Sequence record: PZ019084.1
From: a phage
Length of the DNA: 64,000 bases
Reading direction: 5' to 3' (one strand)
Under the pieces are notes generated by a model, which was given only the letters and a program-made list of their open reading frames with translations, made no database searches and was not told where the DNA came from. Below are positions 57 through 63,605 of this stretch, piece by piece. Every line of letters starts with the position of its first letter. Positions within the stretch are counted from its first letter, which is position 1. Position numbers and translations under genes: made by a program.

Positions 57-74
57 AGAGGGCTTCGGCCCTCT
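57..74 (+). terminator. GC stem-loop (UUCG loop) followed by U-run between genes 37 and 38
   Basis: agagggcTTCGgccctct then ggattttta; hairpin plus T-run on coding strand. Confidence 0.4.
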
Positions 75-3660: not shown

Positions 3661-4296
3661 TCACAGTTTAGATGCTACGGTGATTACTGCTTCAATGTTT
3701 TCTGCCGAGCGTTTAATGTCAAGATACACATTACCGTTTTTAGCGATTTTACATGACATTCCGATATCAGTAAATTTCTGAATATGATGTTCCATCATTT
3801 TGTATCCAAAAATTCGCATATTTCCATTGTTGTTAATTTCAAAATTACGAATTCCGTGAGTGCGTTTTTCTAAAATAGCGAGATAGTTACTGCGATAAGT
3901 TTCAACCTTTTTAAGAACAAATCCATTTTCATCTAAAAGTTTTAACATGAAGTCTTTATCTTCTTCCATATCGGAAGTAATCTCACGAGCTTTACGAGTT
4001 GCTCGTTTTTTCAGCAGTTCAGGAGCATTTTCCTGTGCGTATAAAGTTGCTGCATTTGAAATAATATCCTGAGCTTCACCTGTAATGATTAATCCATCAC
4101 CAGATTTCTCCACCAGGCCTTTTTTAATCAATACCCCAATATTACTATTAACTACTGCATTACCTAAATCTGGATGCACCTCACGAACTTCTGCAGCTGT
4201 AATGAAATCTTTCTTAGCAATGGTAATTAAAATCGCAGCAGTTTTTTCATTCAGAACATCGTTAGAAGCTTTGATGATGTAAGTTACTTTAGACAT
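3661..4296 (-). CDS. motA: middle-mode transcription activator MotA
   Basis: 211 aa starting MSKVTYIIKASNDVLNEKTAAILITIAKKDF, matching T4 MotA; SD ggag upstream. Confidence 0.9.
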   Translation of the reverse strand: MSKVTYIIKASNDVLNEKTAAILITIAKKDFITAAEVREVHPDLGNAVVNSNIGVLIKKGLVEKSGDGLIITGEAQDIISNAATLYAQENAPELLKKRATRKAREITSDMEEDKDFMLKLLDENGFVLKKVETYRSNYLAILEKRTHGIRNFEINNNGNMRIFGYKMMEHHIQKFTDIGMSCKIAKNGNVYLDIKRSAENIEAVITVASKL

Positions 4297-4335
4297 TTTC
4301 TAATCTCCGTAATTCTGTATCAGTAGTTGATAGTT

Positions 4336-4390
4336 GTATAGTACCATAGTATGCTTTGGTTGTAAACCGTTTTGTGAAAAAATTTTTGAA
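4336..4390 (-). promoter_or_regulatory. T4-type early promoter upstream of motA
   Basis: minus strand reads GTTTAC (plus 4362-4367), 18-nt spacer, TACTAT (plus 4338-4343), with A/T-rich upstream element. Confidence 0.6.
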
Positions 4391-4418
4391 ATAAAAAAGG
4401 GAGAGCCGAGGCTCTCCC
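4391..4418 (-). terminator. rho-independent terminator-like hairpin
   Basis: gggagagccgaggctctccc stem-loop followed on the minus strand by a U-run (plus ataaaaaa). Confidence 0.55.
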
Positions 4419-4423
4419 TAAAA

Positions 4424-4573
4424 TTACTGCATGACTGTGATAACTGTCATGATAACACGTTGAATTCCGAACGCAAGAAGACCTCCTGCTACGGCAGGAA
4501 CAACACCTAAACCCGCCAGTAAAATGCCACCAGATACTAATGCAGCGCTTGTAATACCTATGAATGGACTCAT
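4424..4573 (-). CDS. small hydrophobic protein (~49 aa, below ORF-track cutoff)
   Basis: ATG overlaps gene 52 stop (ATGA); translation MSPFIGITSAALVSGGILLAGLGVVPAVAGGLLAFGIQRVIMTVITVMQ is one TM-like helix. Confidence 0.4.
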   Translation of the reverse strand: MSPFIGITSAALVSGGILLAGLGVVPAVAGGLLAFGIQRVIMTVITVMQ

Positions 4574-6194: not shown

Positions 6195-6281
6195 ATTTTC
6201 CTCACTGGCGTCCGAAGACGCCTTTAGTTTTAAGATTGTTACGATAGAACTGCATCACATGTTCGTTATGGAAATTGCTCA

Positions 6282-8871: not shown

Positions 8872-8890
8872 AAAAGGGCCGAAGCCCTTT
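8872..8890 (-). other. GC hairpin with CGAA loop in denB upstream intergenic region
   Basis: aaagggccgaagcccttt. Confidence 0.4.
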
Positions 8891-9088: not shown

Positions 9089-9102
9089 AATTTTCCTTAG
9101 TT

Positions 9103-9118
9103 AAGGGCCGAAGCCCTT
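9103..9118 (-). other. GC hairpin (CGAA loop) overlapping rIIB stop codon, upstream of next SD
   Basis: aagggccgaagccctt directly at rIIB stop, followed on the mRNA by aaggaaaatt ATG. Confidence 0.45.
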
Positions 9119-10055
9119 ATTTAAATTGTTCAGTAACGTCTTCAACTACTTCGTATTGGCAGGTACGCATTTTAGCATCGTTGTAATCAATCGGAATTGA
9201 TACTACATCGCGAGGATGTACTTTAACTTTTACAACTCGGCTGGTTGAACTGCCAAAGTGACGAATATAAGATTTAGAACACACATGCAGACCACGAGAA
9301 CAAGTTTGTGTATCATCGTCATTCACACGAGTACGTGGCATTTTAACTACTTTACCAGGACTGTTATCAAAAGTATTTGAATGGCAGTCAAAGTAATTGC
9401 TGCGAACTACTTTCCAGGCATAGAAGTAGCCGTCTTCTGTAATTTCAATATCGTTTGCTACCAAGAAATCAAAGAGTCGAGATACCGCTTTTTGGCTCGG
9501 GTTTTCTAACAGATTTTCCAAGAACGGAAAATAAAATTCAAAGTTTTCGCCTTTTTCCATCGAATCGAGAATACGATCAACTAAACCAGATCGCAATTCA
9601 ATATTTTGATAGAACAAGCTTCCACCTTCAATTCGAACATCACCGGAAATATATTTTTCAACAGCGCGACGAACGTTAATTTTTTGCGCCGCTTCTTCCA
9701 ATTTATCTGCAACAAGCAGATTAAGAATTTCTTGGAAGTTTGAATGAGTATTAGGAGTTGCGTTATAAGTTACACCGTCAACAGTAATTGAAATGAATTT
9801 TTTAGATGCATTCCAAATAATGTCAGATTTAGCAACTGGAGCAATAGCTGCATCGCTCTTAACTGTAACTGTAATGTCACCGCTAATGGTAACTTTGGAG
9901 CGCTCAGCTTCTTCAGCATTTTTCAAAACACGACGGATTGTGTCCACCGATACACCTTGCCAATCAGCCAATTCCTGTTGGGTGTAATTACCACTTGAAT
10001 ACAGTTTGACAATTTCAGCTTGTTCGTTTTTGGTCAGGCATTTAATATTGTACAT
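9117..10055 (-). CDS. rIIB: rapid-lysis/membrane-associated protein rIIB
   Basis: 312 aa starting MYNIKCLTKNEQAEIVKLYSSGNYTQQELADWQGVS; length and order rIIA-rIIB as in T4. Confidence 0.9.
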   Translation of the reverse strand: MYNIKCLTKNEQAEIVKLYSSGNYTQQELADWQGVSVDTIRRVLKNAEEAERSKVTISGDITVTVKSDAAIAPVAKSDIIWNASKKFISITVDGVTYNATPNTHSNFQEILNLLVADKLEEAAQKINVRRAVEKYISGDVRIEGGSLFYQNIELRSGLVDRILDSMEKGENFEFYFPFLENLLENPSQKAVSRLFDFLVANDIEITEDGYFYAWKVVRSNYFDCHSNTFDNSPGKVVKMPRTRVNDDDTQTCSRGLHVCSKSYIRHFGSSTSRVVKVKVHPRDVVSIPIDYNDAKMRTCQYEVVEDVTEQFK

Positions 10056-10066
10056 AATTTTCCTTA

Positions 10067-12244
10067 TTAGGCCGCAAGGGCCTTCATAGTTTTAGCGATT
10101 TGGGAAACTTCATCATCACTTAAAGAGTTGCGATAACCGATGAAGTCGGAAACAATACGGAATTTCTTGGTAAACTCAGCAACCATTTTATCACTGTTTT
10201 TTAAAGCATTACGTGACAATTCATCAAAAAGATTAGTTACGGTCCAGATGTCATGACCGATGGTATCTTTTCCACCATTGAAATATACACCCCGCAATGA
10301 ACTAACCATATTACCAAGGCGAGTATATTCTTCGGAAACTTCATCTGTACTGAAATATTTCATCATAAAATTAAGTTCAGGATACTTAATAATTTTATCA
10401 ATATATCGCTGAGCTGAACTTGAATAACCTACATACTTATCATAATCTACATCGTCAAAAGCATCTACATATAAATCACGTAGAGTTTCAAAAATACATT
10501 GACACTGGCCGAGTTCTTTTACCTTTTTCTGCAAAAGCGGACGAATAACATAAAATTCATTAATGCCAATAATATTAGCCATACGAGTCAAAATACTCGT
10601 AGATGGATGACAAAGCGATGTAGTACCATCCATAGAGAAAATATCAGAACGATGCATATACGCTACATAACCAGTAATTTCATCTGCTTCTGACGTAAGT
10701 GTAAACAGTTCCTCTTTTTCCCAGCGCCCGTCTTTAATTTCAAACTTAAATGCAGTAGCAGCTTTAGGACGAGGAGCTGTACTTTTTACTGCCTTTGGAA
10801 TATAACTTTTAACTAAAGCTTCAATTTCTGACAAATAATGAATGTTAACTTCATCACTTTCAAACATTGCCATAATATCAGGGAGTAAATCAATCTGCGA
10901 TTCTACTTCCGGATTAATAAACAAAAGGCGTTCATTGTGATGAATATTCAAAGTGTTATTAAATTCACTATCATCTAACGCGCGTGCTAATCCACGGACA
11001 ATATTAACACGATTTTTAGTATTATCAATAACAATATTAATTTTTGTCGTATTAATACCAAACAGACGATAGCTTGATGCAACGGCTGAAGTTTCATGAC
11101 TTTGCTTAATGCGTTTCAGTCGAGGGTCAAGATTTACTTCATACACAACCCCTGCATTGCATAACTTACTGTCAGGTTCAAACATGCTCTGCATCTTTTT
11201 ATATGACAGATTTTTAGTCGTGAATTTGACTGAATTGCTAATCATATAATCTCGAGCAGAATATCCCATCTTCATCAATTCACGGTATGTATGACGAGGA
11301 GATGTAGATTCTTTAAATCGTTTTACATCTTCATTGAATGCCTTCTCACTAAGCTCTTTAACACGCTCAATAATATTTTTACGAGTACGATCATCTAGTG
11401 AAAGAGCCTCGCGCGATGGAGCAATATCAAGTGAACCCATTGGAAACTTAATATAATTCACTTCATTGCGAATGCTTAACCAATTACGGTCTCTAATAAC
11501 ACCTTCGATAGGATAAACAATGCCGCCATAGATAGCATACAATCCACCACGATCGGGCCAGTATCTTTCTGGATTTACGCCGTAATAGTCATCAAAATCT
11601 GGAAAATAATCAATTTCGCGGTCAAGACCATTAATGATAGCCAAATCTTTGAATGGTCGCATGATATAAGAAACTTCATAAGCAAAGTTTCTAAAGTCCT
11701 TTTCTTCAACTGGAACTACAATTTCAATACCAGTTTTATCGTCTGGACCCATTTCTTTTACGAATGTAGGTTTAATTTGCGGACCATCACCATCCATGTA
11801 AGCTACATAACCACGAATTTCACCTTTATGATATGAAGTAATACTAAATGTATCAGTATAACTAAACGGAGATTTAGAACCTAAACCAAATCCACCAATG
11901 AAATCATTAGATTCAGCCTTAGATGAACTAAAGTATGAATTATACAACCCAGGAGAATTATCATCACCCTGAATATCAAAATCGCTCATACCTGGACCAA
12001 AATCTCGGCAAACAAATCGCGGATCTAATCGTCCTGGAACTTGAATGATAAATTTTTCAGGATTTCCATTAAGAGCATGGGCATCAATCATGTTGGTAAT
12101 CAATTCACGGACTACTGCGCGAATCTTGTTTGTATACAAATCAGATGACAGAATTTTGAATACTTTAGGAGATGCTGTGATGCTAAATGCCTTTGATTTA
12201 GAACCATTGCCAAGAATTGTTTCTTTTTCAGTGGTGATAATCAT
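10067..12244 (-). CDS. rIIA: rIIA protein
   Basis: 725 aa, same length as T4 rIIA; GHKL-like N-terminal region. Confidence 0.9.
10069..10083 (-). other. GC hairpin (GCAA loop) between rIIA stop and rIIB SD
   Basis: aggccgcaagggcct abutting rIIA stop, followed on the mRNA by aataaggaaaatt ATG. Confidence 0.45.
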
Positions 12245-12481: not shown

Positions 12482-12514
12482 TAATTATACCACATCCTTG
12501 TGGTAAAGTAAACT
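12482..12514 (-). promoter_or_regulatory. T4-type early promoter
   Basis: minus strand GTTTAC (plus 12508-12513, overlapping gene 39 stop), 18-nt spacer, perfect TATAAT (plus 12484-12489). Confidence 0.6.
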
Positions 12515-14330
12515 ATTGGCTCATCCATTCTTTACGAAGGTCAGCATTATCTCCCATGAGCATTTCAAAAAGCTCTTTCCAGTTCTCAGGAAGTTTAACA
12601 ACATCATATACTGGGTTTTGAATCATCTCACGATATTCAGATTTTTCCAAAGAGCCAAGTCCCTTAATATAACGGATGCTATGTTTAGGTAGAGCATCCT
12701 TGACACTCTCATATTCAGCGACTGTATAAAACCATTCTTGTTTTTTACCGACCTGAGCGATGATTACAGGAGTTTTGACGAAGCGAATTCTTCCTTGATC
12801 AAACAGTTCTGGCCAATTACTAAAAAATCCGAGCAGAGAAGGATAAATGCTCCCTAGACCATCATGGTCAGCATCAGTCATAATAGCAATATTATGATAA
12901 TTCAAGTTTTCAGCTTTTTCACCAAGAACTAATCCAGTGATTGCGCAAATGTCAAACAGTTCTTTGTTTTTAAGCATATCAGCATATGACATACCCCAGC
13001 TATTAAGAACTTTACCACGCAATGGATAACCACCATGAAGTTCTTTATCACGAACATCAATAAGATATCCGATAGCGGAATCACCCTCAGTCAAGAAAAG
13101 AGTAGTGTCAGCATCTTTACCACAAAGATTCGCTTTAATATGTTTATGAACCTTAGCTTTAGAAGCCTTTTTAGCTGCTTTAGTTTCTGCTGCTTTTTCT
13201 GCCGCCAATTTACGAGCCAAGGCAGCTTCAATGATTGGCATTAAAATTGCTTCATTATTTAAAATAGCGCGTGAAATCTTTTTAGCATCAAGCTGAATAT
13301 GACTACGAATTTCACCAAAAGGAGAAGTCAAACGCTCTTTAGTCTGAGAATCAAATCGCATGTTTTTCATATCACGAACAAACATAACGATAGTCAAACA
13401 TTCTTTAACACGTGCTTTAGTTACATCAATTTTGAACTTGCGTTTGATTTGTGGAATAAGGTCTTCACAAATATCATCCATAACACAGTCAATATGATGG
13501 CCACCATTCTTAGTATGAATGTTATTGACGTATGTTAATTGACGAAAACCATCAGGTGAACGACCAACCGCAATAGAACAATTTTCTTGTTCTTGAACGA
13601 TAGCATGCTCATCATATTGGCGTGCATATTTCTTAAAATTACCCTGAACCTTTTTACCGTTAAAGGTAAATTGAATATCAGGATAAACTACTGCAAGCGT
13701 CTGGAGACGATCCAGTGTAATGTCAAGATAAACTTGAGATAGCTCATTAGTTTCAAATGACATAAAATCAGGAATGAAAGTAACACGAGTTCCTTTCCAT
13801 TTTCCAGGAATAGTTTCCCATGATTTATTTTCCATGCCATTTGAACAACGAACTACAATATTATTTTGACCGTCGCCAGTTTCACCGACAAACATCACAG
13901 AAAAAATGTTAGTTAAACTAGAACCAACACCATTCATACCGCCAGTGACGCGTTCTTTATCATCACCAAAGTTACCACCTGCTTTTGGAATAGTCCAGGC
14001 AGCAACAGGACCAGGAATTTCTTCACCAGTAGGTGTTTTAACCATCGCTTGTGGAATACCACGACCATTATCTTCAACTGTTACTTGATTGTTTTTAATA
14101 GTAACATTAATTTTATTTGCGAATTTAAACTTAGTACGAATACCTTCATCTACTGAGTTATCGATAATTTCATCAATAAGCTTAACAAGACCAGGTACAT
14201 ACTGAACACTTTCCCATTTACCAAACAGAAAGCGCTCATGCATTTCATTAGCAGAAGAGCCAATATACATGCCGCTACGCTTTTTGATATGTTCAATATC
14301 GCTCAGAATTTTAATTTCATTCTTAATCAT
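12513..14330 (-). CDS. 39: DNA topoisomerase II large subunit (GyrB-like), fused 39+60 form
   Basis: ~605 aa single ORF with ATPase N-terminus and TOPRIM C-terminus; ORF track begins one codon earlier at GTG 14333. Confidence 0.9.
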   Translation of the reverse strand: MIKNEIKILSDIEHIKKRSGMYIGSSANEMHERFLFGKWESVQYVPGLVKLIDEIIDNSVDEGIRTKFKFANKINVTIKNNQVTVEDNGRGIPQAMVKTPTGEEIPGPVAAWTIPKAGGNFGDDKERVTGGMNGVGSSLTNIFSVMFVGETGDGQNNIVVRCSNGMENKSWETIPGKWKGTRVTFIPDFMSFETNELSQVYLDITLDRLQTLAVVYPDIQFTFNGKKVQGNFKKYARQYDEHAIVQEQENCSIAVGRSPDGFRQLTYVNNIHTKNGGHHIDCVMDDICEDLIPQIKRKFKIDVTKARVKECLTIVMFVRDMKNMRFDSQTKERLTSPFGEIRSHIQLDAKKISRAILNNEAILMPIIEAALARKLAAEKAAETKAAKKASKAKVHKHIKANLCGKDADTTLFLTEGDSAIGYLIDVRDKELHGGYPLRGKVLNSWGMSYADMLKNKELFDICAITGLVLGEKAENLNYHNIAIMTDADHDGLGSIYPSLLGFFSNWPELFDQGRIRFVKTPVIIAQVGKKQEWFYTVAEYESVKDALPKHSIRYIKGLGSLEKSEYREMIQNPVYDVVKLPENWKELFEMLMGDNADLRKEWMSQ

Positions 14331-14382
14331 CACTTATCCTCGTTTGGTTTCGGGAATATTATACTCCGGTAATCATAAAGCT

Positions 14383-14400
14383 AAAGGCCCGAAGGCCTTT
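14383..14400 (-). other. GC hairpin (CGAA loop) immediately after stop of lipoprotein gene
   Basis: aaaggcccgaaggccttt. Confidence 0.4.
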
Positions 14401-15217: not shown

Positions 15218-15637
15218 TTATTCCTTAAAGTGTGCTTTCAACATCTGATACAAGGACCATGCCTGTTCATTATTTTCAATAGTAACTTTCATGACAGGAA
15301 ATTCTGTGAAATCTTCTATTTGTTCTTGCTCTTCCTGCTCTTGCTCTTCAGATGCCTGATATGGATTTTCAACTTCATCAAAGAACCCAGCTTCGTTAGT
15401 AGAGAGCCAGATAAAGTTTTCGTCAAGGATATCACCATGTGTTGCATATCCAACTGTGCCGGTAGATGTCACAATTTTAGTAGGACGCCCGTAATAGTCA
15501 ACATCTAAAATTTTAAAAGGTTCCATACCTAAACGTCGTGCATAGATTCCGTTATCAGTATGGTCTTTAATAAAATTTTCTTGAGCCTGTTTATTTTTAA
15601 ATTGATACCATTTATTAACTTCAAATTTAATAGCCAT
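15218..15637 (-). CDS. hypothetical acidic protein
   Basis: 139 aa with [10 protein letters not shown] acidic stretch. Confidence 0.55.
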
Positions 15638-24077: not shown

Positions 24078-24109
24078 CTATTATACCATACTCATTTTGG
24101 AAAGTAAAC
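24078..24109 (-). promoter_or_regulatory. T4-type early promoter
   Basis: minus strand GTTTAC (plus 24103-24108), 18-nt spacer, TATAAT (plus 24079-24084). Confidence 0.55.
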
Positions 24110-24118
24110 CGGTAAAAT

Positions 24119-24142
24119 GAAAAAAGGACTCCCGAAGGAGTC
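24119..24142 (-). terminator. rho-independent terminator downstream of soc
   Basis: ggactcccgaaggagtcc hairpin followed on the minus strand by a U-run (plus aaaaaa). Confidence 0.55.
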
Positions 24143-24150
24143 CTTGAATT

Positions 24151-28200: not shown

Positions 28201-28227
28201 AAAAATCTCCTCATTTAACCAACAAGA

Positions 28228-28260
28228 CTACTATACCATAGTCTTGTCAGCTTGTAAACT
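28228..28260 (-). promoter_or_regulatory. T4-type early promoter upstream of dmd
   Basis: minus strand GTTTAC (plus 28254-28259), 18-nt spacer, TATAGT inside inverted repeat caagacta/tagtcttg. Confidence 0.55.
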
Positions 28261-29695: not shown

Positions 29696-30058
29696 TTAAA
29701 AGAATTTAAATTTTTTCTTTGACCTTTTATTAAATGCATCTTGTAGTTGCATTGTAATACATTTTTCTACATGAGGAGCTAACTCAGCTTTTCTTTCTTG
29801 GTCAAGAACAGCAAAGTCCATTACGACTTTTCCATCAACCCAATCTAATTTTGTCACATACACAATGTGTGTAGAACCATCTTCTAGTTTAATGACAATC
29901 TCCTGGATAACATTTTCCATAGCGGATTTAATTATCTTAAGAGACTCATTAAAAAGACGTTCTTTTCTTTCTTCTTCCCCCTCCGAAGAGGGGGATTCAT
30001 CGATAATTTCTAGATCTAAATCTAAATCATCTTTATTCATTAAATTCTTCCATATCAC
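29696..30058 (-). CDS. 40: gp40-like protein (position between 41 and uvsX)
   Basis: 120-aa acidic ORF at the position gene 40 occupies in T4. Confidence 0.5.
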   Translation of the reverse strand: MIWKNLMNKDDLDLDLEIIDESPSSEGEEERKERLFNESLKIIKSAMENVIQEIVIKLEDGSTHIVYVTKLDWVDGKVVMDFAVLDQERKAELAPHVEKCITMQLQDAFNKRSKKKFKFF

Positions 30059-34069: not shown

Positions 34070-34090
34070 AAAAAGGGACCCGGAGGTCCC
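34070..34090 (-). terminator. rho-independent terminator downstream of gene 43
   Basis: gggacccggaggtccc hairpin followed on the minus strand by a U-run (plus aaaaa). Confidence 0.55.
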
Positions 34091-34103
34091 TAGATTTATT
34101 CTA

Positions 34104-36800
34104 TCAGCCAAACAGGAAGTCTAACGAAGCTTTTTCTTCATAGTCCATACCCGCCGATTCACACATACCCGCAAGAGGTTTAACAAACGATTTTTGGAAC
34201 AAAGTTGAGTAGTCAATCCAAGACAGTACATCAGAACGAATTTCTTTTGGAAGTTCTGTGCCTGATGGCCAAGCAATGCACTTGTCACCAAATGGATTTC
34301 CTTCACGTAATGGAAGAACCATTACCTTATTTCCATCCAAAATTGGAGCTACACCTAAACCGCTAACAGCTCGACGATAAGTTAGCACACCACGAATATG
34401 GAACGGGCATTTAAATCCTGGCCAACCTTTATCGTCATATTTCGCTATATCGTTCGCAGTTTTTACTTCAGCAATAACTTTATAGTCAAGTTGACGATAT
34501 TCTTTCTCAAAGTTCTTGTAGTATTCTTGGACAGACTCTTCGCCTTCCTGAAGAATACGACGAATACTTTCTTCGAGAGCTTCTTGTACTGCTTTTGGCG
34601 TTGAACTCTGCTGAGTTTCCATACCCATGATTTTTAGATGCGGTTCAGCAAATCGCTTATCTTCCATATCATAAACGTTCAGAGCATAACGTTTTTTCGC
34701 TTTCCAAAATCCACCGACACCCTTTGAACCAAGCGGAGGGCAAGAAATAGCTTCACGGTCCATATGCATCAGATGCTCGCGGTTATTCATATAATCACAT
34801 AACTCACGATATGCAACATCAATCATAGGTTCCATCTTTTTCTTACCAAACTGATTCATGAATTCAACTAAATCATTTTGTTCTTTAAAGCGATCAAGAC
34901 CTACTTTTTCAATTACTTTATCTACACAAACATATACCGAATCAGTATCACCTGCTGCGATGAAATCTTCACCATTAGTTCCACATACTTTATTCAGATA
35001 TTCATTAATTTTGCGAGCAATCCACTGAATACCGACTTGACCGAAAATTGTGATAGCAGTAGCATTTCGCAAATCATAGTAACGGAAATGAATATTACCA
35101 AGAGCACCATAAAGACTGTTAATAAGAATTTTACGGTTCAGCTGATTTGTGTTAGCAAGTGTAGCAGCTTTTTCACATTCTTCAATCAGACTATTAAGAA
35201 CAGATTCAGTGTAATTCGACAATTCGTTTAAGAAATCATCACTGAACTTAACATATCGTTCAACTTCTGGTTTAGTTGGGCAAGACCCTGCACCTTTCAT
35301 AATAATCTTTTTAATAGCTTCGGCATTCATTTCTTCAGCGAACATTTTCTTTTTCCAATCTTTACGCTGGAAAAATACTTTAGCGATTTCCTTTGGAATG
35401 ATACCTTCTTGGTGCTTATCATACATCCATCCATTCGGAGAACAAGAATATTCATCACTTGGCTTAGGAGCTGTTCCTGCGATATATTCATGAATTGGAT
35501 GAACTTTAAACTGCCCGCGAATAGTCTCAGGACTAATGTTAACCTGACGAATAATGCTAGGATACAGAGACGTCAAGTCAAAACTCATAATGTATCGACG
35601 AGCAATCGGTTTAGGTTCAAACACAAATGCACCTGGAAAACTCTGTTTAACGTGCGAACCTTGTTGAGGAATAACCTTATGTTCACTTTTAAGTGAGTTA
35701 AAAATAATAGCATCCCAAGTTTTAATAGGACTCATTACACCAGAAAAAGGCATTTTAGCATAATAAGACATACTTAAAACTAGATCGATAAACCCACGAA
35801 TTTTATCAATTGCTTGAACTGATTCTACGTCAATGATGTTATAACTAATGTATCGTTGATGATTAGTCTCACGAAGTTTATTAATAGGACCATCGTACGG
35901 CAATTTACCTTTTTTGGTTTCATGCTGAGCAACTGATTCCAAAGAGAATGATGGCAAATTAGTAAATGCGAATTTCTTGTACAAATCTAAATAATCAAGA
36001 ATAGATACGCCATCAATCGAATAAATTTCTTTGCTACCGTACATATTTTGAATTAGTTTAGATTTTACTCGACCGATTGGAGAGAAGCGTTTCATACTGC
36101 GTTCACCGAGAACCATTTTAACACGATTCATGATATACGGAACGTCAAATCCCTCAATATTCCAACCGGTAAAAATAGCAGGTCGTTTCTGTTCCCAGAG
36201 ATTAATATATTCCATGAGCATATCACGCTCATTATCAAATGGCATATAAATTACTCGGTCAAGAATTTCTTGAGGAACTTCATCACCACCTTCACAGTCA
36301 AGCTTAGCAGCTAACTTTGCGTCCCATTTTGATACTGAACCGTACATTGAATTCAACAAATCAAAGACGTAAAAACGATCATCAATTGAATCATAATGAG
36401 TGATAGCATCAATTTCATATTCTGCTTTCATTGGGTCAGGAAATTTATCACCAGTAACCTCAATGTCACAGTTAGCTACACGAACAAATTTTCGGTCATA
36501 AACAATTTCTGAACCATATGTATCACTGATATAAGCGAGTTTAAAATCGTTCATACCGAGAGCTTCGAGACCGATGTCTTCCATTCGCTTCATCCAGTCT
36601 CGTGCATCTTTCATTGATGGAAATTTTTGAGGAGCACAGTTTTTACCATAAATGTCTTTGTATTTTGACTCTTCCTTACAATGTCTAAACATAGTCGGAA
36701 GATATTCTACTTCACGAGTACGTTCCTTTCCATTTTCATCAATATAACGCTCAACAATGTTATTTCCGACTGTTTCGATAGAGATATAAAATTCTTTCAT
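34104..36800 (-). CDS. 43: DNA polymerase (family B)
   Basis: 898 aa, same length as T4 gp43; exonuclease and polymerase motifs (DTDS, YGDTDS-like). Confidence 0.9.
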   Translation of the reverse strand: MKEFYISIETVGNNIVERYIDENGKERTREVEYLPTMFRHCKEESKYKDIYGKNCAPQKFPSMKDARDWMKRMEDIGLEALGMNDFKLAYISDTYGSEIVYDRKFVRVANCDIEVTGDKFPDPMKAEYEIDAITHYDSIDDRFYVFDLLNSMYGSVSKWDAKLAAKLDCEGGDEVPQEILDRVIYMPFDNERDMLMEYINLWEQKRPAIFTGWNIEGFDVPYIMNRVKMVLGERSMKRFSPIGRVKSKLIQNMYGSKEIYSIDGVSILDYLDLYKKFAFTNLPSFSLESVAQHETKKGKLPYDGPINKLRETNHQRYISYNIIDVESVQAIDKIRGFIDLVLSMSYYAKMPFSGVMSPIKTWDAIIFNSLKSEHKVIPQQGSHVKQSFPGAFVFEPKPIARRYIMSFDLTSLYPSIIRQVNISPETIRGQFKVHPIHEYIAGTAPKPSDEYSCSPNGWMYDKHQEGIIPKEIAKVFFQRKDWKKKMFAEEMNAEAIKKIIMKGAGSCPTKPEVERYVKFSDDFLNELSNYTESVLNSLIEECEKAATLANTNQLNRKILINSLYGALGNIHFRYYDLRNATAITIFGQVGIQWIARKINEYLNKVCGTNGEDFIAAGDTDSVYVCVDKVIEKVGLDRFKEQNDLVEFMNQFGKKKMEPMIDVAYRELCDYMNNREHLMHMDREAISCPPLGSKGVGGFWKAKKRYALNVYDMEDKRFAEPHLKIMGMETQQSSTPKAVQEALEESIRRILQEGEESVQEYYKNFEKEYRQLDYKVIAEVKTANDIAKYDDKGWPGFKCPFHIRGVLTYRRAVSGLGVAPILDGNKVMVLPLREGNPFGDKCIAWPSGTELPKEIRSDVLSWIDYSTLFQKSFVKPLAGMCESAGMDYEEKASLDFLFG

Positions 36801-36858
36801 AGATATTCCTTAGTTTATAGCCCGAGTTATTAGGCTCTTGATATATTATACTCCAAAT

Positions 36859-36876
36859 AAGGGGCCGAAGCCCCTT
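36859..36876 (-). other. GC hairpin (CGAA loop) between regA stop and gene 43 leader
   Basis: aaggggccgaagcccctt abutting regA stop. Confidence 0.4.
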
Positions 36877-38804: not shown

Positions 38805-38820
38805 AAGGGCCGAAGCCCTT
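38805..38820 (-). other. GC hairpin (CGAA loop) between gene 45 stop and gene 44 SD
   Basis: aagggccgaagccctt followed on the mRNA by ...gaggaaatt ATG. Confidence 0.45.
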
Positions 38821-44067: not shown

Positions 44068-44227
44068 ATATCAAGAACCGTCATTGAAATGCAAAATAAA
44101 ATTATTGAAATAAATCCGTCCGGAGTGCTAAAGAACCCAATCCAACATGCTCTAGTGAATAGATAAAATGCGAGAAAAAGTATCACATATCCAAGAAATA
44201 TCATTATATCAAACTCCGTATAAAGCT

Positions 44228-44245
44228 AAAGGGCCGAAGCCCTTT
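44228..44245 (-). other. GC hairpin (CGAA loop) overlapping a-gt stop
   Basis: aaagggccgaagcccttt. Confidence 0.4.
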
Positions 44246-45446
44246 ATTTTGTAATAATGTCAAACTGTTCTTTAAAGCAGAAGCTTGAATCTTGATGCTG
44301 ATACAAAAATTCATAAGCTTTTTCGCGTTCACGGTCATAAAGAGCTCGGTCAGATGACAGTTCTTTAATACGCTCAAATGTTGATTCCATGTCATTTTCA
44401 TCAAACCAAACGATACCGCTATCATGAGAAATTAACGGAGTATTATCAACACGGAATTTTAAATTTTCGCCAGTAGATTTCCAAAATACTGGAATTGTTC
44501 CACATGCACCAAGCTCGAGATGAGTATATTCTAAAGAACGTTGTAGATATTTTTTGTCCAACTTACTCAGCTGATAACCAAATCCAGATTTACTCATGCG
44601 TTCAAGCATTTCGCTATTTACATAACGGTCAAGAATTTGCGTTGGCAAATTAGGAGCAATTTTAATTTGGTCTACTTGATGAAGACGATAATACTCGTAT
44701 GGAATTCCTTTTTCTTTAATAGGAATGAACGCTGGAGAACGTTCCAGACCTTCCATAATAGTACTTAACCCTGCAGGTTTAAGATGTTTTTCGTGAAAAT
44801 CAAACATCTGATAAAAACCTTTCCATGTAGTAGTACGACCAATCCAACGGTTGATATTCATGTTAATTTCAGAAACATCTTTCCAGTAAGTTGATCGAAC
44901 CTTCGCAATATCCATAGGAGGCTGAAAGTTGTATACAGTCGGTGCTTCTTCAATATCATCAAACAGTGAAACAGTTTCTGGATACCATTCTTTCATCAGA
45001 ACTTTATTAAAATCACCATTATCAGAATGACTAAAAATAACATCAGCTCGGCGAACAGTTTCTTCTAATCCCAAATTTCGACGCAAAGAAAGAGAAGAAT
45101 GGTCATGTTGATAAACTACAACACGAACCGAAGGTTTAATGTTATCAATAATTTTTTTATAGTTATTAATAGTGTCTTCTTCGACTGAAGTAGCAGGAAC
45201 TGAATTGATAACTAGAATATCACAATCATTTACCAGCTTAAGCGTTTTATCGTATTCTTTTGCCAATAAAACCGGAATTGAAAATGATTTATAATCATGC
45301 GCGCAATTACGTGTAAATGATTTATCTTTAGCATAAACCAAAGTTACTTCATGACCATTTTTAATAAACCAATCACGCTGCTCAAGAGAAAATTTAGTTA
45401 CGCCACAACCTTCAAGACCTCGAGCCATAAAAATGCATACTTTCAT
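44244..45446 (-). CDS. agt: alpha-glucosyltransferase
   Basis: 400 aa, same length as T4 alpha-gt; position between 47 and 55. Confidence 0.85.
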   Translation of the reverse strand: MKVCIFMARGLEGCGVTKFSLEQRDWFIKNGHEVTLVYAKDKSFTRNCAHDYKSFSIPVLLAKEYDKTLKLVNDCDILVINSVPATSVEEDTINNYKKIIDNIKPSVRVVVYQHDHSSLSLRRNLGLEETVRRADVIFSHSDNGDFNKVLMKEWYPETVSLFDDIEEAPTVYNFQPPMDIAKVRSTYWKDVSEINMNINRWIGRTTTWKGFYQMFDFHEKHLKPAGLSTIMEGLERSPAFIPIKEKGIPYEYYRLHQVDQIKIAPNLPTQILDRYVNSEMLERMSKSGFGYQLSKLDKKYLQRSLEYTHLELGACGTIPVFWKSTGENLKFRVDNTPLISHDSGIVWFDENDMESTFERIKELSSDRALYDREREKAYEFLYQHQDSSFCFKEQFDIITK

Positions 45447-45512
45447 TTAATATCCTCATTGTTTTGGTTTATTTTACCAAAAATTTATAAAGCAATATAG
45501 GAGCCGAAGCTC

Positions 45513-45686
45513 CTATCCGCATAATACGCCATACAAAGGCTCGTTAGAGCTTCTAAATTTTATGCGCTTATATGTTATAGTTCCTTCTGCTTTAGCTTTA
45601 TCGTGAGCCTCTTTAAAGCGTCTCATCATTTCTACTTTAGAGGAACGAATTTTATTATAATCTATTTCAGAAGTCTGGGTGTTCAT
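45513..45686 (-). CDS. hypothetical small protein (~57 aa)
   Basis: hand-translated MNTQTSEIDYNKIRSSKVEMMRRFKEAHDKAKAEGTITYKRIKFRSSNEPLYGVLCG; followed by hairpin ggagccgaagctcc. Confidence 0.35.
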   Translation of the reverse strand: MNTQTSEIDYNKIRSSKVEMMRRFKEAHDKAKAEGTITYKRIKFRSSNEPLYGVLCG

Positions 45687-47863: not shown

Positions 47864-47883
47864 CAAAAAGGGCCGAAGCCCTT
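47864..47883 (-). terminator. rho-independent terminator-like hairpin
   Basis: aagggccgaagccctt followed on the minus strand by a U-rich run (plus atccaaaaa). Confidence 0.5.
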
Positions 47884-59795: not shown

Positions 59796-60764
59796 TTATT
59801 TCAGAAGAGTAACCTCAGCGATTTCTTCCCAACCGTTTTTATCGGTCATAATAAAGTCAGCAAGATAAAGAGCAGTACGCAGTGAAACATTGCGTAAACG
59901 ATTAACATTAACTTTCATCCATGATAATGCTTTATAAGTTTCTTCATCAGAAAGACCGCGCTTTTGCATCATGTCAGTTGAAAGAATAACATCTTCAACC
60001 CTGACCATAATTTCTTCATTAGTGTGAACACCCAAATCCAAATAAACCGAGCGGGACACTAATGCTTGTAAATGTGGAGCAAGTTTAGTACCACGGTCTA
60101 ATTCGCGGTCAATGTCAACGTTTGTGATAAAAACAATCGTTCCTTTAAATTCAAACTCACGGTCAATGCCTTTTTCTTCTAAGTAAGAAGACGCAGTGCT
60201 CCAGCAGACTTTACGGGTCTCTCCAGTGTCCAGAGCGGCTTTTAGAAGATTAAGAATGTCCATATCAGAGAAAACATCCACATCATCAATCAAAAGGACA
60301 GAATTCTCTTCACGATTATTCCAAAGCTGCTCATAAAGACCAATACCAGAGATTTTACCATTAATACTTTTATATTCAATGTATCCAATATCATTTGCTT
60401 TATTTAAAGCTTTATCTAAAGAATACGTTTTACCAATACCTGCTGCGCCAGAGATAATCAATGAACGAATATTTCCGTTAATAATACCATTCGTCATCAT
60501 TCCCATAACATTAAATCTTTTATTAATGCGGGTTTTCATATCTTCATACGATTCTTTAACTTCCTCAACTTTTACACCATCATATGAAATATCTGATTTG
60601 TAAACCCAAACACCGCGACGTTTACCGTCAATTTCAACAAAAACTTTACCATCTCCTTGTGCATCTACCGGAGCATTATCTGGGAACCATTCGCCTAAGA
60701 GCTCAAAAGTTCCAGAGATTTCTTTACCGAAGTAGATACCCTTATTGATAGTTACAGTTTTCAT
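59796..60764 (-). CDS. P-loop NTPase (AAA-like ATPase) of unknown function
   Basis: start set at ATG 60764 (MKTVTINKG...); Walker A GAAGIGKT and Walker B VLLIDDVD; ORF-track form reads through the promoter. Confidence 0.6.
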   Translation of the reverse strand: MKTVTINKGIYFGKEISGTFELLGEWFPDNAPVDAQGDGKVFVEIDGKRRGVWVYKSDISYDGVKVEEVKESYEDMKTRINKRFNVMGMMTNGIINGNIRSLIISGAAGIGKTYSLDKALNKANDIGYIEYKSINGKISGIGLYEQLWNNREENSVLLIDDVDVFSDMDILNLLKAALDTGETRKVCWSTASSYLEEKGIDREFEFKGTIVFITNVDIDRELDRGTKLAPHLQALVSRSVYLDLGVHTNEEIMVRVEDVILSTDMMQKRGLSDEETYKALSWMKVNVNRLRNVSLRTALYLADFIMTDKNGWEEIAEVTLLK

Positions 60765-60796
60765 TTTATTCTCCAAATCCGTATCAGTTGATAGTT

Positions 60797-60829
60797 GTAT
60801 AGTACCATAAAGCTTTATGCTTGTAAACC
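60797..60829 (-). promoter_or_regulatory. T4-type early promoter
   Basis: minus strand GTTTAC (plus 60823-60828), 18-nt spacer, TACTAT; cassette nearly identical to the motA promoter region. Confidence 0.55.
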
Positions 60830-60852
60830 GTTTTGTGAAAAAATTTTGAAAT

Positions 60853-60877
60853 AAAAAAAGGGAGCCCGAAGGCTCCC
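60853..60877 (-). terminator. rho-independent terminator after nucleotidyltransferase gene
   Basis: gggagcccgaaggctccc hairpin 3 nt after stop, followed on the minus strand by a U-run (plus aaaaaaa). Confidence 0.55.
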
Positions 60878-60879
60878 TA

Positions 60880-61893
60880 TCATTTATAATAACTTCGGTG
60901 GTTTTCAAGATAAACCCTCTCAAGGAAGTCATCCCAGAAACCCATGTCTACTTTTTGCTGCATACCGTTCTTAGAAGCTTCAATGGATGCTGCTTCTACT
61001 TGATCGACCACATCTTCCAAAAACTCTTGAACAGTTTTAAATGGATGTTTACCCAGCTTCACGTCGAGAATAAATGGAGCGTCTTGAAGTGGATAGACTA
61101 AGTCACCAGTTTTGTAAATTTCCAATAGTTGGAGTCCACCACGACAAGCATGACTCAGAGCTTTCCAGTCAATGCCCTCATTCGCTTCAGCCTTACGAGC
61201 ACGTTCGCCATATTCAGCATCTAATTTATTCAGTGACTGTTTAAGCTCGATAAGAGAAAGCGTTGTTTGATATTTACGACCCAACACAGTGTAGAACGTT
61301 TGTGGGCCTGTTTTCTCATGATTATGGAATACCCATTCACAGAATTCGTTCTCTGGAAGACGATGCTTAATATCTTCAACTTTAGTTCGACGAAGTCTAT
61401 CAGGGATTCCTTCTTGATAATCAACCCACTGATCGGGGATTTGATTAACTACTTTCAATACATCACGCAATGCGGCCAAACGAGAACCCTTGACGCCGTA
61501 TTTAGAAGCTTGCTTGCGAACATATCCTAAATAGGATTTCATGTTAGTCGTATAAAAACGAGAACGATTGTCTTGAATAAACTTCCATACATCAGGCAAA
61601 TCAGATTTAACTACCAGTTCAGGTGGAGTGTGAAGCATATCCAATGCTACAGTTTCACCATCTGCTGCTAATTTAAAGAAATATTTAAGACTATATAGTT
61701 CATGGTCAATATCATCTTTAGTGTTTTTAGATGATGTATTGTTAGTGTTTTTGCTCATATGCTCTTTAACATTTCCGATAAGAATATCGCGAGCAGGAGG
61801 AACAAAGATTTCTTTAAAATCTACATCAGATTCTGGAGTAGAAGTTCCATAAAGATGACTACCAAAATAGCTTTTCATTACTGTTTTCATCAT
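60880..61893 (-). CDS. pol-beta superfamily nucleotidyltransferase-like protein
   Basis: 337 aa; N-terminal GS-x10-DVD motif (FGSHLYGTSTPESDVDF) and downstream acidic residue (ALDMLH region); helical C-terminal domain. Confidence 0.55.
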   Translation of the reverse strand: MMKTVMKSYFGSHLYGTSTPESDVDFKEIFVPPARDILIGNVKEHMSKNTNNTSSKNTKDDIDHELYSLKYFFKLAADGETVALDMLHTPPELVVKSDLPDVWKFIQDNRSRFYTTNMKSYLGYVRKQASKYGVKGSRLAALRDVLKVVNQIPDQWVDYQEGIPDRLRRTKVEDIKHRLPENEFCEWVFHNHEKTGPQTFYTVLGRKYQTTLSLIELKQSLNKLDAEYGERARKAEANEGIDWKALSHACRGGLQLLEIYKTGDLVYPLQDAPFILDVKLGKHPFKTVQEFLEDVVDQVEAASIEASKNGMQQKVDMGFWDDFLERVYLENHRSYYK

Positions 61894-63439: not shown

Positions 63440-63572
63440 AATTACATACTCCTTTGAATAGTATCAATAATGTTGTTCACCAGATTATAAGTAAACATTG
63501 GATAATTATATTGAATCATCACATACACAACAAACAAAACTTTCATTCTCTTCTCCTTGGCAGTTGACAAGA

Positions 63573-63605
63573 TTACTATACCATAACCTTGCCAACTTGT
63601 AAACA
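63573..63605 (-). promoter_or_regulatory. T4-type early promoter
   Basis: minus strand GTTTAC (plus 63599-63604), 18-nt spacer, TATAGT. Confidence 0.5.

Follow-up and report, generated by a model that had tools for sequence, protein, structure and literature searches.

C(UUCG)G hairpins at cistron boundaries of a T4-like phage: a probable graded series of elements forming or protecting transcript ends

The window analysed here is a stretch of 64,000 nucleotides (sequence record PZ019084.1) from a T4-like phage, a Tequatrovirus that is approximately 97% identical to IME339; its rIIA–rIIB region has 97.8% identity to a Tequatrovirus. Gene order is the same as in T4, and nearly all genes of the window are carried by the minus strand. 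A preliminary description listed six hairpins at gene junctions, i.e., at 9103-9118, 10069-10083, 14383-14400, 36859-36876, 38805-38820 and 44228-44245, and all six are present at these positions. Their loops were described as GNRA/UUCG-type (GAAG or GCAA), but a GNRA loop is present in none of the six, as the plus strand had been parsed while the genes are on the minus strand. The loop taken for GAAG actually reads CGAA on the plus strand and, in five of the six hairpins, cUUCGg on the mRNA strand. Read in the sense direction, none of the junction hairpins in the window carries a GNRA loop. Using the definition of a C(UUCG)G hairpin as CUUCGG between complementary arms of 2–8 nt, with G-U pairs permitted (quoted in PMC8948821), such hairpins are found at 9103, 14383, 36859, 38805 and 44228 and at 8 further sites. 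The exception is 10069-10083, which has a CUUGC loop.

Intrinsic terminators were defined as a GC-rich hairpin followed by at least 5 U in 8 nt, and hairpins were additionally given an approximate terminator score calculated with modern energy parameters. At the six named sites, the 8 nt 3′ of the stem hold 1, 1, 4, 3, 3 and 4 T, respectively, and the scores are negative except for a borderline +3 at 36859. The U-tract counts and the scores set the strong terminators, at 4398, 8873, 24124, 34074 and 60859, apart from the rest, in agreement with the earlier remark that only some hairpins are followed by U-runs. The view that many are probably not terminators is partly supported: the hairpins are real RNA-level elements at cistron boundaries and five of the six named ones have no usable U-tract, whereas the five other members of the set just listed are clear intrinsic terminators. 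A generic promoter/terminator scanner placed many hairpins on the wrong (plus) strand and was unspecific for promoters, with 79 found versus 77 expected.

Several hairpins without a U-run are located between a stop codon and the following Shine–Dalgarno (SD) sequence. At the junction of rIIB and the next ORF, the hairpin at 9102..9119 on the minus strand (U-AAGGGC-UUCG-GCCCUU-A, core 9103-9118; terminator score -32) receives its first stem bases from the rIIB stop codon UAA, and the SD of the 64-aa ORF after rIIB, AAGGAAA, lies 5 nt 3′ of the stem. Close relatives keep this hairpin with UUCG or UUUG as loop. RB69-type phages have no hairpin after rIIB and show a stop/start overlap (TAATG), from which it follows that these elements are dispensable at some junctions. 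The hairpin at the end of rIIA, at 10069..10083 on the minus strand (AGGCC-CUUGC-GGCCU), has a pentaloop, which is neither a tetraloop nor UUCG. It lies within the last five rIIA codons (..M K A L A A stop), 3 nt upstream of the rIIB SD, and is identical in T4. In relatives collected by tblastn against GenBank phages (IMG/VR matches were close relatives or contigs broken at the junction), a hairpin occupies the same place, after the Met codon of a conserved (I/V)xKxM motif, in 7 genera of the Tevenvirinae, which between them show 6 different stems. Conceivably, this hairpin regulates rIIB expression as a conserved element not described so far. Between genes 45 and 44, the hairpin AAGGGC-UUCG-GCCCUU (38805..38820, minus strand; terminator score -27) lies 2 nt past the stop codon of gene 45, and the AUG of gene 44 follows 31 nt further on, again without a U-run in between. 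Two more hairpins of this kind are present at 57..74 and 6207..6222. The first (AGAGGGC-UUCG-GCCCUCU; score -30) is on the plus strand, as are the genes there, and lies 1 nt after the stop of a gene entering from the left, by position gene 37, with the gp38 SD directly next to it. The second (GGCGUC-UUCG-GACGCC, minus strand) has no U-run and the SD GUGAGGAAAAUAUG 1 nt downstream. Overall, the U-less hairpins are situated 1–24 nt upstream of SDs, and no promoter is found between hairpin and SD at 9103, 10069 and 38805.

The placement just upstream of the next SD that had been proposed is thus correct for the U-less hairpins (rIIA/rIIB, rIIB/next ORF and 45/44), and not for 14383, 36859 and 44228, which have MotA-dependent middle promoters, orthologues of T4 P39, P43 and P47, directly behind them and therefore mark transcription-unit boundaries. 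The start sites of the corresponding T4 promoters are 5349 for P39, 29933 for P43, 36576 for P47 and 38682 for PmobB (PMC2988021, Table 1). Upstream of gene 39, the hairpin AAAGGCC-UUCG-GGCCUUU (14383..14400, minus strand; terminator score -13) has a 1-nt overlap with the stop of a 90-aa ORF, its 3′ arm enters the MotA box, and the same hairpin exists in T4 at 5392. The promoter, the equivalent of T4 P39, spans 14358..14385 on the minus strand, with MotA box TTTAGCTTTA at 14376-14385, a 12-nt spacer and the -10 element TATAAT at 14358-14363; the P39 start site maps by offset to about 14351. At the end of the alpha-glucosyltransferase gene, the hairpin at 44227..44246 on the minus strand (UAAAGGGC-UUCG-GCCCUUUA, core 44228-44245, containing AAGGGC-UUCG-GCCCUU as at 9103 and 38805; score -14; T4 36619) has the stop codon as its first bases, and its 3′ arm overlaps the MotA box. 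This box, TTTAGCTTTA at 44221-44230, is followed by a 12-nt spacer and TATAAT at 44203-44208 in a promoter (44203..44230, minus strand) equivalent to T4 P47, whose start maps by offset to 44196, 7 nt past the -10. A further hairpin, upstream of alpha-gt (45497..45516, minus strand; AUAGGAGC-UUCG-GCUCCUAU), overlaps the stop of a 57-aa ORF and corresponds to T4 38727. After it come the MotA box TATTGCTTTA (45488-45497) and the -10 TAAAAT (45471-45476), and the promoter start agrees with PmobB 38682. The PmSL arrangement of a stem-loop, a Mot box with TGCTT core and a properly spaced -10 is accordingly found at 14383, 44227 and 45497. The regA/43 hairpin at 36859..36876 (minus strand; AAGGGGC-UUCG-GCCCCUU), at T4 position 29963, starts 2 nt after the regA stop; on its 3′ side come AUUUGGAG and, at 36845-36850, the -10 element TATAAT of the middle promoter for gene 43. 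Here a -10 is present, but the Mot box cannot be placed unambiguously. One possibility is that the loop GCTTCG doubles as the MotA box (TGCTT[T/C]A) of P43. This register fits the published start at 29933 (G-31 C-30 T-29 T-28 C-27); against it, such a box would be separated from the -10 by 15 nt and not by about 12–13, and no -10 occurs at this distance from the other cUUCGg hairpins.

Other hairpins look like terminators. The one at 8873..8890 (minus strand) reads AAAGGGC-UUCG-GCCCUUU followed by UGUUUU (score +12), and lies 3 nt past the stop codon of the 64-aa ORF that follows rIIB. After gene 43, 12 nt from its stop, AGGGACC-UCCG-GGUCCCU at 34074..34091 (minus strand) has a UNCG loop and continues with UUUUCAU (score +25). 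A borderline case, at 47868..47883 on the minus strand (AAGGGC-UUCG-GCCCUU, then UUUGG; score +3.5), overlaps the stop of a 66-aa ORF. Three PeSL-type cassettes on the minus strand combine a stem-loop, an early promoter (TTTACW-N17-TAYWAT), an SD and a start codon, an order that is absent from the six named sites. In the cassette at 24124..24145, AAGGACUCC-UUCG-GGAGUCCUU is followed by UUUUCAUUUU (score +35), with the early promoter elements GTTTACT (24103-24109) and TATAAT (24080-24085) behind it; its T4 counterpart is at 15316. The cassettes at 60859..60878 (AGGGAGCC-UUCG-GGCUCCCU, then U7; promoter GTTTACA at 60822-60828; score +57) and 4398..4419 (AGGGAGAGC-CUCG-GCUCUCCCU, then U5; promoter GTTTACA at 4361-4367; score +54) are near-identical from the U-run through the promoter region.

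The recurrence of hairpins at gene junctions, already pointed out in the preliminary description, is confirmed. Stem-flanked CTTCGG occurs 12 times on the minus strand and once on the plus strand, where the genes are on plus, whereas 200 dinucleotide-shuffled sequences averaged 0.2 such motifs and never held more than 2. Five exact copies of the 16-mer AAGGGCTTCGGCCCTT are present in the window, with 0 expected, next to 3 near-copies with double changes that preserve pairing, and every one of these is in sense orientation. Chance or base composition was rejected as an explanation on these two counts. All 13 GC-stemmed copies read UUCG, and not CGAA, on the coding strand; antisense copies of the motif number only 2 and have weak, AU/GU-rich stems. 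Twelve of the 13 are at gene junctions. The remaining one, at 29976..29995 on the minus strand (UCCCCCUC-UUCG-GAGGGGGA), is inside gene 40, 37 nt after the uvsX stop, and is the same in T4 at 22341. The hairpins had also been placed on or after stop codons, and 16 of the 21 junction hairpins indeed start between -4 and +12 nt from the upstream stop. Folding z-scores of single hairpins against dinucleotide shuffles are modest (-0.8 to -3.1, with -0.8 at 10069..10083, -3.0 at 38805..38820 and -3.1 at 9102..9119), because GC clusters re-pair once shuffled. The case for these hairpins is therefore based on their recurrence, orientation and conservation. Exceptional thermodynamic stability and a block to reverse transcriptase are further hallmarks of the T4 hairpins. 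Folding energies, e.g., -10.9 kcal/mol for 9102..9119 and -8.0 kcal/mol for 10069..10083, contain the tabulated tetraloop bonus and are thus no independent measure of stability.

In T4 (AF158101), orthologous hairpins of the named sites are found at 5392, 29963, 31909 and 36619, and CTTCGG is stemmed in 8 of 9 sense occurrences versus none of 10 antisense ones. Across 80 related loci, the distinct sense tetraloop hairpins comprise 37 with a UNCG and 27 with a GNRA loop, versus 3 and 1 in antisense. GNRA loops replace UUCG in relatives, as GAAA at 45/44 and regA/43 and as GGAA or GUAA at the rIIA end. At the 45/44 junction a tetraloop hairpin is present in all 12 distinct relatives, with stems such as GGGC/GCCC, GGGCC/GGCCC, GGGAC/GUCCC, GAGGCC/GGCCUC and GGAGGA/UCCUCC, while the chance expectation of such a hairpin is about 0.004 per 70-nt spacer, as estimated from shuffles. 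Double changes occur in 6 of 7 pairs in the 45/44 alignment, where 94% of the cells are paired versus 70% in shuffles, and likewise in 6 of 7 pairs in the regA/43 alignment, where 100% of the cells are paired; both alignments are anchored on the best hairpin per sequence and therefore lean towards structure. Even in phages whose gp45 or RegA is no more than 54–85% identical, a tetraloop hairpin persists at these junctions with a wholly different, compensating stem (at 45/44 down to a gp45 identity of 54%), which shows selection at the RNA level.

These hairpins are very probably the C(UUCG)G hairpins of T-even mRNAs, acting as RNA-level elements that form or protect transcript ends in a graded series. 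Their existence, recurrence, sense orientation and stop-proximal position are established, as are T4 orthology, compensatory stem evolution and promoter adjacency. In the proposed mechanism, short GC stems with a hyperstable UUCG loop, transcribed in sense at cistron boundaries, would form or protect the ends of transcripts to different degrees. The first class, with long stems and five to seven U's, would consist of intrinsic terminators, usually with an early promoter directly behind (PeSL). The second class, with GC stems of 4–5 bp and an interrupted U-tract before MotA middle promoters (the equivalents of P39, P43, P47 and PmobB), would be PmSL-type and would close the upstream unit, probably leakily, before the next unit begins. 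The third class has no U-tract and comprises stop-to-SD hairpins (rIIB/next ORF, 45/44, 37/38 and 6207) as well as the one in the last rIIA codons. Such hairpins would be unable to terminate efficiently and are most likely mRNA-end protectors. They would most probably act as a barrier to 3′-to-5′ exonucleases once the RNA has been cut further downstream and/or as a cap at the 5′ end of the following cistron, which would allow neighbouring cistrons, e.g., 45 versus 44-62, to have different steady-state levels. Termination efficiencies along the series are predictions from sequence, and the proposed split between terminators and stabilisers follows U-tract content alone. A role outside canonical termination is plausible for five of the six named sites, since they have no usable U-tract and none is conserved at 45/44 among relatives. 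Hyperstable hairpins with weak U-tracts can nevertheless terminate partially, so the second and third classes may be weak terminators.

Possibly, although we consider it doubtful, all hairpins including the U-less ones are intrinsic terminators or attenuators without a separate stability role, the stability of cUUCGg offsetting a poor U-tract and partial termination at each site setting the ratio of upstream to downstream transcripts. Hairpins of the same type, and even the same 16-mer, do occur with good U-tracts (8873, 47868) as well as without (9103, 38805). Moreover, numerous stems finish in UU or UUU before running into U-rich stretches such as UUUAGCUUUAU, the T4 45/44 tail reads UUUAUAAUUU, and hairpins precede promoters as boundaries of units would predict. 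However, there is 1 U in the 8 nt after 9102, 10069, 6207 and 57 (tails AACUAAGG, AAUAAGG, AGUGAGG and AAGGAUU, respectively), and relatives show no conserved U-tract behind the 45/44 hairpin, e.g., CCUGAUCGGAG and AGUUUAAUG. The genes past U-less hairpins also require read-through, because no promoter lies in the interval from hairpin to SD at rIIB, 44-62-regA and 38.

A role in translation, by fast folding that insulates the RBS from long-range pairing, by termination–reinitiation coupling or by affecting RegA access, seems improbable. The short distance from U-less hairpins to SDs would suit it, and so would the RBSs downstream of 10069 and 38805 (rIIB and gene 44), which are classical RegA targets. 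The RBS that follows 9102 is nearly the same as the rIIB RBS. In addition, folding nucleation was proposed as a role by the original authors (PMC4371310). It is less easily reconciled with a hairpin-to-SD distance that varies from one relative to the next (from 5 to about 37 nt at 45/44), with the absence of a hairpin at most SD-preceded genes of the window, and with the many members that lead into promoters or U-runs instead of SDs. It has little credence, too, that the abutment of stop codons is functional rather than mere genome compaction. In such a case, the 5′ arm would be masked or melted while a ribosome terminates, and formation of the hairpin, with the termination or 3′-end protection that it brings, would be confined to ribosome-free RNA and so be coupled to translation of the upstream cistron.

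Very improbable is a role mainly at the DNA level, as dispersed repeats or palindromes for recombination (the PeSL model) or as targets of DNA enzymes, with an incidental RNA hairpin. Five identical 16-mers and near-identical terminator–promoter cassettes are scattered through the window, and indels and exchanges of genes in T4-like phages have been tied to PeSL cassettes (PMC4122927), but a palindrome has no favoured loop orientation, yet 13 of 13 GC-rich copies have UUCG on the coding strand, including the copy in the plus-strand gene block, with the same bias in relatives; G.U pairs in the stems, seen in the sense reading only (e.g., GAGGGC/GCCUUU at T4 45/44), are A-C mismatches on the opposite strand; orthologous sites conserve structure and not sequence; and several hairpins lie in conserved core clusters (45-44-62-regA-43) instead of hyperplastic regions. 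The connection with RegB sites that had been suggested was rejected, as the hairpins contain no GGAG and RegB, with consensus GGAGRAYARAA, is inhibited by secondary structure (PMC3014915). RegB sites, i.e., an unpaired GGAG, at best GGAGRAYARAA, in an intergenic region or SD, are absent from the hairpins, and the SDs beside the U-less hairpins read AAGGAAA or GAGGAAA.

At gathering thresholds, Rfam returned no family anywhere in the window; hairpins this short have no model there. A literature search found no Term-seq or 3′-end map for T4 or T4-like phages. The main value of the analysis is correct annotation, in which the hairpins delimit the transcription and mRNA units of a T4-like genome and explain the grouping of early and middle genes, by terminator plus early promoter, hairpin plus MotA promoter and hairpin plus SD. 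They are also natural, compact and very stable RNA parts. Their weight is historical, as the UUCG tetraloop was discovered in these hairpins, and the feature alone raises no new question; the role of the U-less hairpins is a decades-old question of some value.

The feature is already known, C(UUCG)G hairpins having been described since 1988. Those of bacteriophage T4 mRNA were reportedly the subject of work by Tuerk et al. that year, in PNAS volume 85 at page 1364. CUUCGG hairpins were found in T4 mRNA and are extraordinarily stable (PMC4371310), and T4 gene 32 mRNA is stabilised by a 5′ CUUCGG hairpin (PMC8948821). The hairpins described here share with those of T4 the motif (X)n-CUUCGG-(Y)n, the phage group and a mostly intergenic sense location. 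Nothing essential differs: there are single stem changes, e.g., at 45/44, the hairpin at 10069-10083 is of another type with its CUUGC loop, and the gene 60 bypass hairpin of T4 is absent because gene 39 is unsplit (606 aa). Cassettes of a stem-loop with an early or middle promoter have been described as well (PMC4122927). The order of stem-loop, early promoter, SD and start at 4398, 24124 and 60859 is that of PeSLs (Arbiol et al., 2010, PMC2839356; Comeau et al., 2014, PMC4122927), and 14383, 44227 and 45497 share the order of stem-loop, Mot box and -10 with PmSLs, which were named in Vibrio phage nt-1 and not in T-evens. In contrast to both, the U-less hairpins at 9103, 10069 and 38805 have no promoter behind them, and whereas the PeSL papers stress DNA recombination, the evidence here favours RNA-level selection of the stem-loop. 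With the Rho-independent terminators of E. coli, the sites at 4398, 8873, 24124, 34074 and 60859 have the GC hairpin and U-tract in common, unlike the named sites, five of which are without a U-tract and one of which, 36859, is borderline. REP sequences in malE-malF and the hairpins of the Rhodobacter puf operon are intercistronic mRNA stabilisers. They have no sequence relation to the hairpins of this phage, are larger and are not tetraloop-based; the function predicted for the U-less class would nevertheless follow the same principle, i.e., a block to 3′ exonucleases that raises the level of the upstream cistron.

The hairpins at the gene junctions of the window are strongly non-random, and sequence comparison shows that they are real elements selected as RNA structures. 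The region around them shares 97.8% identity with Enterobacteria phage IME339 and is matched by hundreds of other Tequatrovirus genomes. ORF order and sizes agree with T4 (rIIB, rIIA, 39, 43, regA, 62, 44, 45, alpha-gt); following the T4 annotation, rIIB lies at 9117-10055, rIIA at 10067-12244 and gene 43 at 34104-36800 (all minus strand), the last followed by regA, 62, 44, 45 and alpha-gt. The phage is T2/T6-like in its unsplit gene 39 (12513-14333), one 606-aa ORF in which T4's gene 60/mobA insertion and translational-bypass hairpin are absent, and in its gp38, a 264-aa adhesin type. The minus strand carries essentially all genes from ~1569 onwards, so the RNA elements of those genes must be read on that strand. 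Only gp38 and holin t, at the left end, are + strand genes. Where holin t (912-1568, +) meets a converging 90-aa ORF (1569-1841, -), a 14-bp hairpin, AAAACCCTCGTTGA-ATTCG-TCGATGAGGGTTTT, lies within the 3′ end of that ORF (1611-1643) and looks like the terminator of the + strand late transcript.

The six hairpins singled out in the preliminary description are all present at their positions. Read on the mRNA strand, which is minus in each case, they are AAGGGC-UUCG-GCCCUU (9103-9118 and again 38805-38820), AAAGGCC-UUCG-GGCCUUU (14383-14400), AAGGGGC-UUCG-GCCCCUU (36859-36876), AAAGGGC-UUCG-GCCCUUU (44228-44245) and AGGCC-CUUGC-GGCCU (10069-10083). Five of the six thus carry a C(UUCG)G tetraloop; the sixth, at 10069-10083, has a five-base loop and falls within the final five rIIA codons (M K A L A A stop). 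GNRA-type loops had been reported as well, but on the sense strand no junction hairpin of the window has one. The + strand had been used, whereas the mRNA of nearly all genes corresponds to the minus strand, and the loops given as 'GAAG' and 'GCAA' result from parsing the complementary strand with the register off by one base. The location was correct, the strand wrong and the interpretation only partial.

A scan of both strands of the window yields 13 GC-stemmed cUUCGg hairpins, 12 on the minus strand and a single one on the + strand (57-74), precisely where genes run in that direction; 200 dinucleotide-preserving shuffles give a mean of 0.2 and a maximum of 2. The 16-mer AAGGGCTTCGGCCCTT has five exact copies, and three further copies differ by pairing-preserving double changes; all are sense, with zero expected. 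Antisense stemmed CTTCGG occurs only twice, in weak, AU/GU-rich, intragenic stems. A DNA palindrome would give UUCG and CGAA on the coding strand at equal frequency, whereas the counts for GC-rich stems in the window are 13 and 0. Likewise, in the first 40 kb of T4, CTTCGG is stemmed in 8/9 sense occurrences vs 0/10 antisense ones. Among 80 related regA-centred loci (52-100% RegA identity), distinct tetraloop hairpins number 37 UNCG and 27 GNRA in sense, vs 3 and 1 in antisense.

The 45/44 junction has a GC tetraloop hairpin in all relatives recovered, which span 54-100% gp45 identity. Its versions include UAGAGGGC-UUCG-GCCCUUUA, AUGGGGU-UACG-GCCCCAU, GGAGGA-GAAA-UCCUCC, UGGGCC-UUCG-GGCCCA, AGGGAC-UU(C/U)G-GUCCCU and UGAGGCC-UUCG-GGCCUCA. 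Loop-anchored alignment leaves 94% of cells paired, vs 70% in shuffles, with both-side changes at 6/7 pairs, and the regA/43 junction shows 100% pairing and 6/7 covarying pairs; both alignments were fitted to the hairpin, which biases these pair counts towards it. An argument independent of alignment comes from shuffled sequence, where tetraloop hairpins (≥6-bp stem including ≥4 GC pairs) occur ~3 times per 64 kb (about 0.004 for a 70-nt spacer), vs a hairpin in every orthologous spacer. Moreover, G.U pairs are seen when the stems are read in sense (e.g., GAGGGC/GCCUUU at T4 45/44), and the inner five stem pairs of the 45/44 alignment contain no A-C mismatches, unpaired cells occurring only at the outermost pair.

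Position was assessed on 21 stable hairpins at or near junctions, comprising cUUCGg, CUCG, UCCG and a few other loops. The proposed abutment on stop codons holds, as 16 of them begin at -4 to +12 nt, measured from where the preceding stop codon ends. In three hairpins, identified by left coordinate as 9102 (the site at 9103-9118), 44227 (that at 44228-44245) and 45497, the stop codon forms part of the stem. This placement largely follows from the short intergenic spacers (30-80 nt), the rest of which the downstream promoter and/or SD must occupy. Among relatives, the hairpin lies anywhere from 0 to ~37 nt past the gene 45 stop, a spread that speaks against any strict mechanistic link with the stop codon. 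The only clearly intragenic member of the set is an 8-bp cUUCGg hairpin in the gene 40 coding sequence, UCCCCCUC-UUCG-GAGGGGGA (29976-29995, -; -15.9 kcal/mol), 37 nt past the uvsX stop and identical in T4.

U-runs had been said to follow only some hairpins, and U counts indeed vary from a clear U-tract to none. Three groups were separated by U count after the stem and a d'Aubenton-Carafa-type discriminant, whose scores are valid as a ranking only. Group 1 comprises clear intrinsic terminators by score: 4398 (+54), 60859 (+57), 24124 (+35), 34074 (+25; after gene 43) and 8873 (+12). Three of these five have a T4-type early promoter, GTTTAC[A/T]-N-TA..AT, ~30-50 nt downstream. The 4398 and 60859 cassettes have almost the same sequence from U-run to promoter region inclusive. 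These two (4290-4430 and 60750-60890, -), each with hairpin, U-run, AT-rich stretch, GGTTTACAA and TATGGTACTATACAACTATCA, lie 56 kb apart and could be recombination substrates as PeSL-type repeats (stem-loop plus early promoter). Two related 14-15-bp hairpins with the common loop UGGUAUAG (28217-28252 and 63562-63597, -) are each an early-type promoter, GTTTACAAG ... TATGGTATAGT, in which a long palindrome is made up of the spacer, the -10 and the start region. Differences between the two copies are compensating; one copy is located between gene 41 and a dmd-like ORF, and the whole hairpin would be present only in read-through transcripts.

Group 2 has short stems and an interrupted U-tract, the 3′ arm continuing straight into a MotA box. 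Behind 14383 and again behind 44227 this is TTTAGCTTTA, 12 nt, TATAAT; behind 45497 it is TATTGCTTTA, 11 nt, TAAAAT (all minus strand). Mapped T4 start sites are 5349 for P39, 36576 for P47, 38682 for PmobB and 29933 for P43 (T4 coordinates; Hinton Table 1, PMC2988021). Moved by offset, the first three fall 7-8 nt past the -10 elements behind 14383, 44227 and 45497. At regA/43 (36859), the TATAAT of P43 follows 8 nt downstream, and beyond it lies the hairpin of the gp43 translational operator. The top of the hairpin at regA/43 (36840-36876, -), gGCTTCg, is similar to the core of the MotA box, TGCTT(T/C)A; it lies at -31 to -26 by the published P43 start, with a spacer to the -10 of 15 nt vs ~12-13, and whether the loop doubles as a Mot box is ambiguous. 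The AGCCU-AAUAACUC-GGGCU hairpin (~36812-36832, -), which precedes the AUG of gene 43 by ~30 nt, is the well-known translational operator of gp43, reportedly the RNA targeted in the first SELEX experiment. Placement just before the next SD, as initially described, thus holds for 9102, 10069 and 38805; 14383, 36859 and 44227 adjoin middle promoters, and these three sit where an upstream unit gives way to a middle promoter.

Group 3 lacks a U-tract and is directly followed by an SD: 9102 (rIIB/next ORF), 10069 (rIIA/rIIB), 38805 (45/44), 6207 and 57 (37/38), with scores of -27 to -55. No common U-tract is found behind the 45/44 hairpin among the relatives' tails. Between group 3 hairpins and the SD no promoter is found, so the downstream genes must be expressed by read-through.

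Comparison with RegB sites had been suggested, but the hairpins lack GGAG and the adjoining SDs are AAGGAAA or GAGGAAA, while RegB requires unpaired GGAG (optimum GGAGRAYARAA) and is inhibited by structure (PMC3014915). Termination is unlikely to be efficient in group 3; for groups 1 and 2 it is the obvious reading, group 1 being strong and group 2 probably leaky. The best-supported reading of group 3 is that the hairpins would protect mRNA ends. They may form a barrier against host 3′ exonucleases, of which RNase II, RNase R and PNPase degrade T4 mRNA (PMC3014915), and could, once processed, act as a 5′ cap structure of the downstream cistron, with the CUUCGG hairpin of the gene 32 leader as precedent (PMC8948821). 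Protection of mRNA ends would also explain why hairpins lie at the boundaries [45] | [44-62-regA] | [43] and at none of the translationally coupled junctions within 44-62-regA.

The hairpin at the rIIA 3′ end (10069-10083), identical in T4, was compared among window/T4, Dhakavirus, Mosigvirus, Kanagawavirus, Karamvirus and two Klebsiella phage groups. In each of these seven Tevenvirinae groups there is a conserved (I/V)xKxM motif, and a hairpin begins either at its Met codon or immediately behind it, with six different stems, differing tail peptides and GNRA in 4/7 loops. To the window/T4 form, AGGCC-CUUGC-GGCCU (peptide KALAA), correspond AAGCCGU-GGAA-GCGGCUU in Dhakavirus (KAVEAA), GGCCGU-GGAA-GCGGCC in Mosigvirus (KAVEAAK), GGGCGA-GUAA-UCGCCC in Kanagawavirus (GE, then stop, with the stop codon in the loop), GAGCGCU-GGAA-AGCGCUC in Karamvirus (RALESA), GGCUGCU-CUCGA-AGCAGCC in Klebsiella phage CP-p-KP-21072 (AALEAA) and GAGCUCC-UUGAU-GGAGCUU in Klebsiella phage K65_evo9 (ELLDGA). 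Structure thus appears to be conserved more than peptide. Middle promoters PrIIB1 and PrIIB2 lie inside rIIA (PMC2988021); the PrIIB2 equivalent is at 10185-10211 (-), and the hairpin falls in the leader of both transcripts. A search of the more recent literature found no published description of it.

Nothing seen here falls outside known kinds, and the feature is already known. The UUCG tetraloop was reportedly discovered in the C(UUCG)G hairpin class by Tuerk et al. in 1988. This class, (X)2-8-CUUCGG-(Y)2-8, is mostly intergenic and especially abundant in T4 phages (PMC4371310, PMC8948821). The five named cUUCGg hairpins belong to it, and T4 itself has the same hairpins at the same junctions. 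The terminator-plus-early-promoter cassettes match the published PeSL arrangement, a terminator-plus-promoter cassette (PMC4122927), and the hairpin-plus-Mot-box arrangement corresponds to PmSL (PMC4122927).
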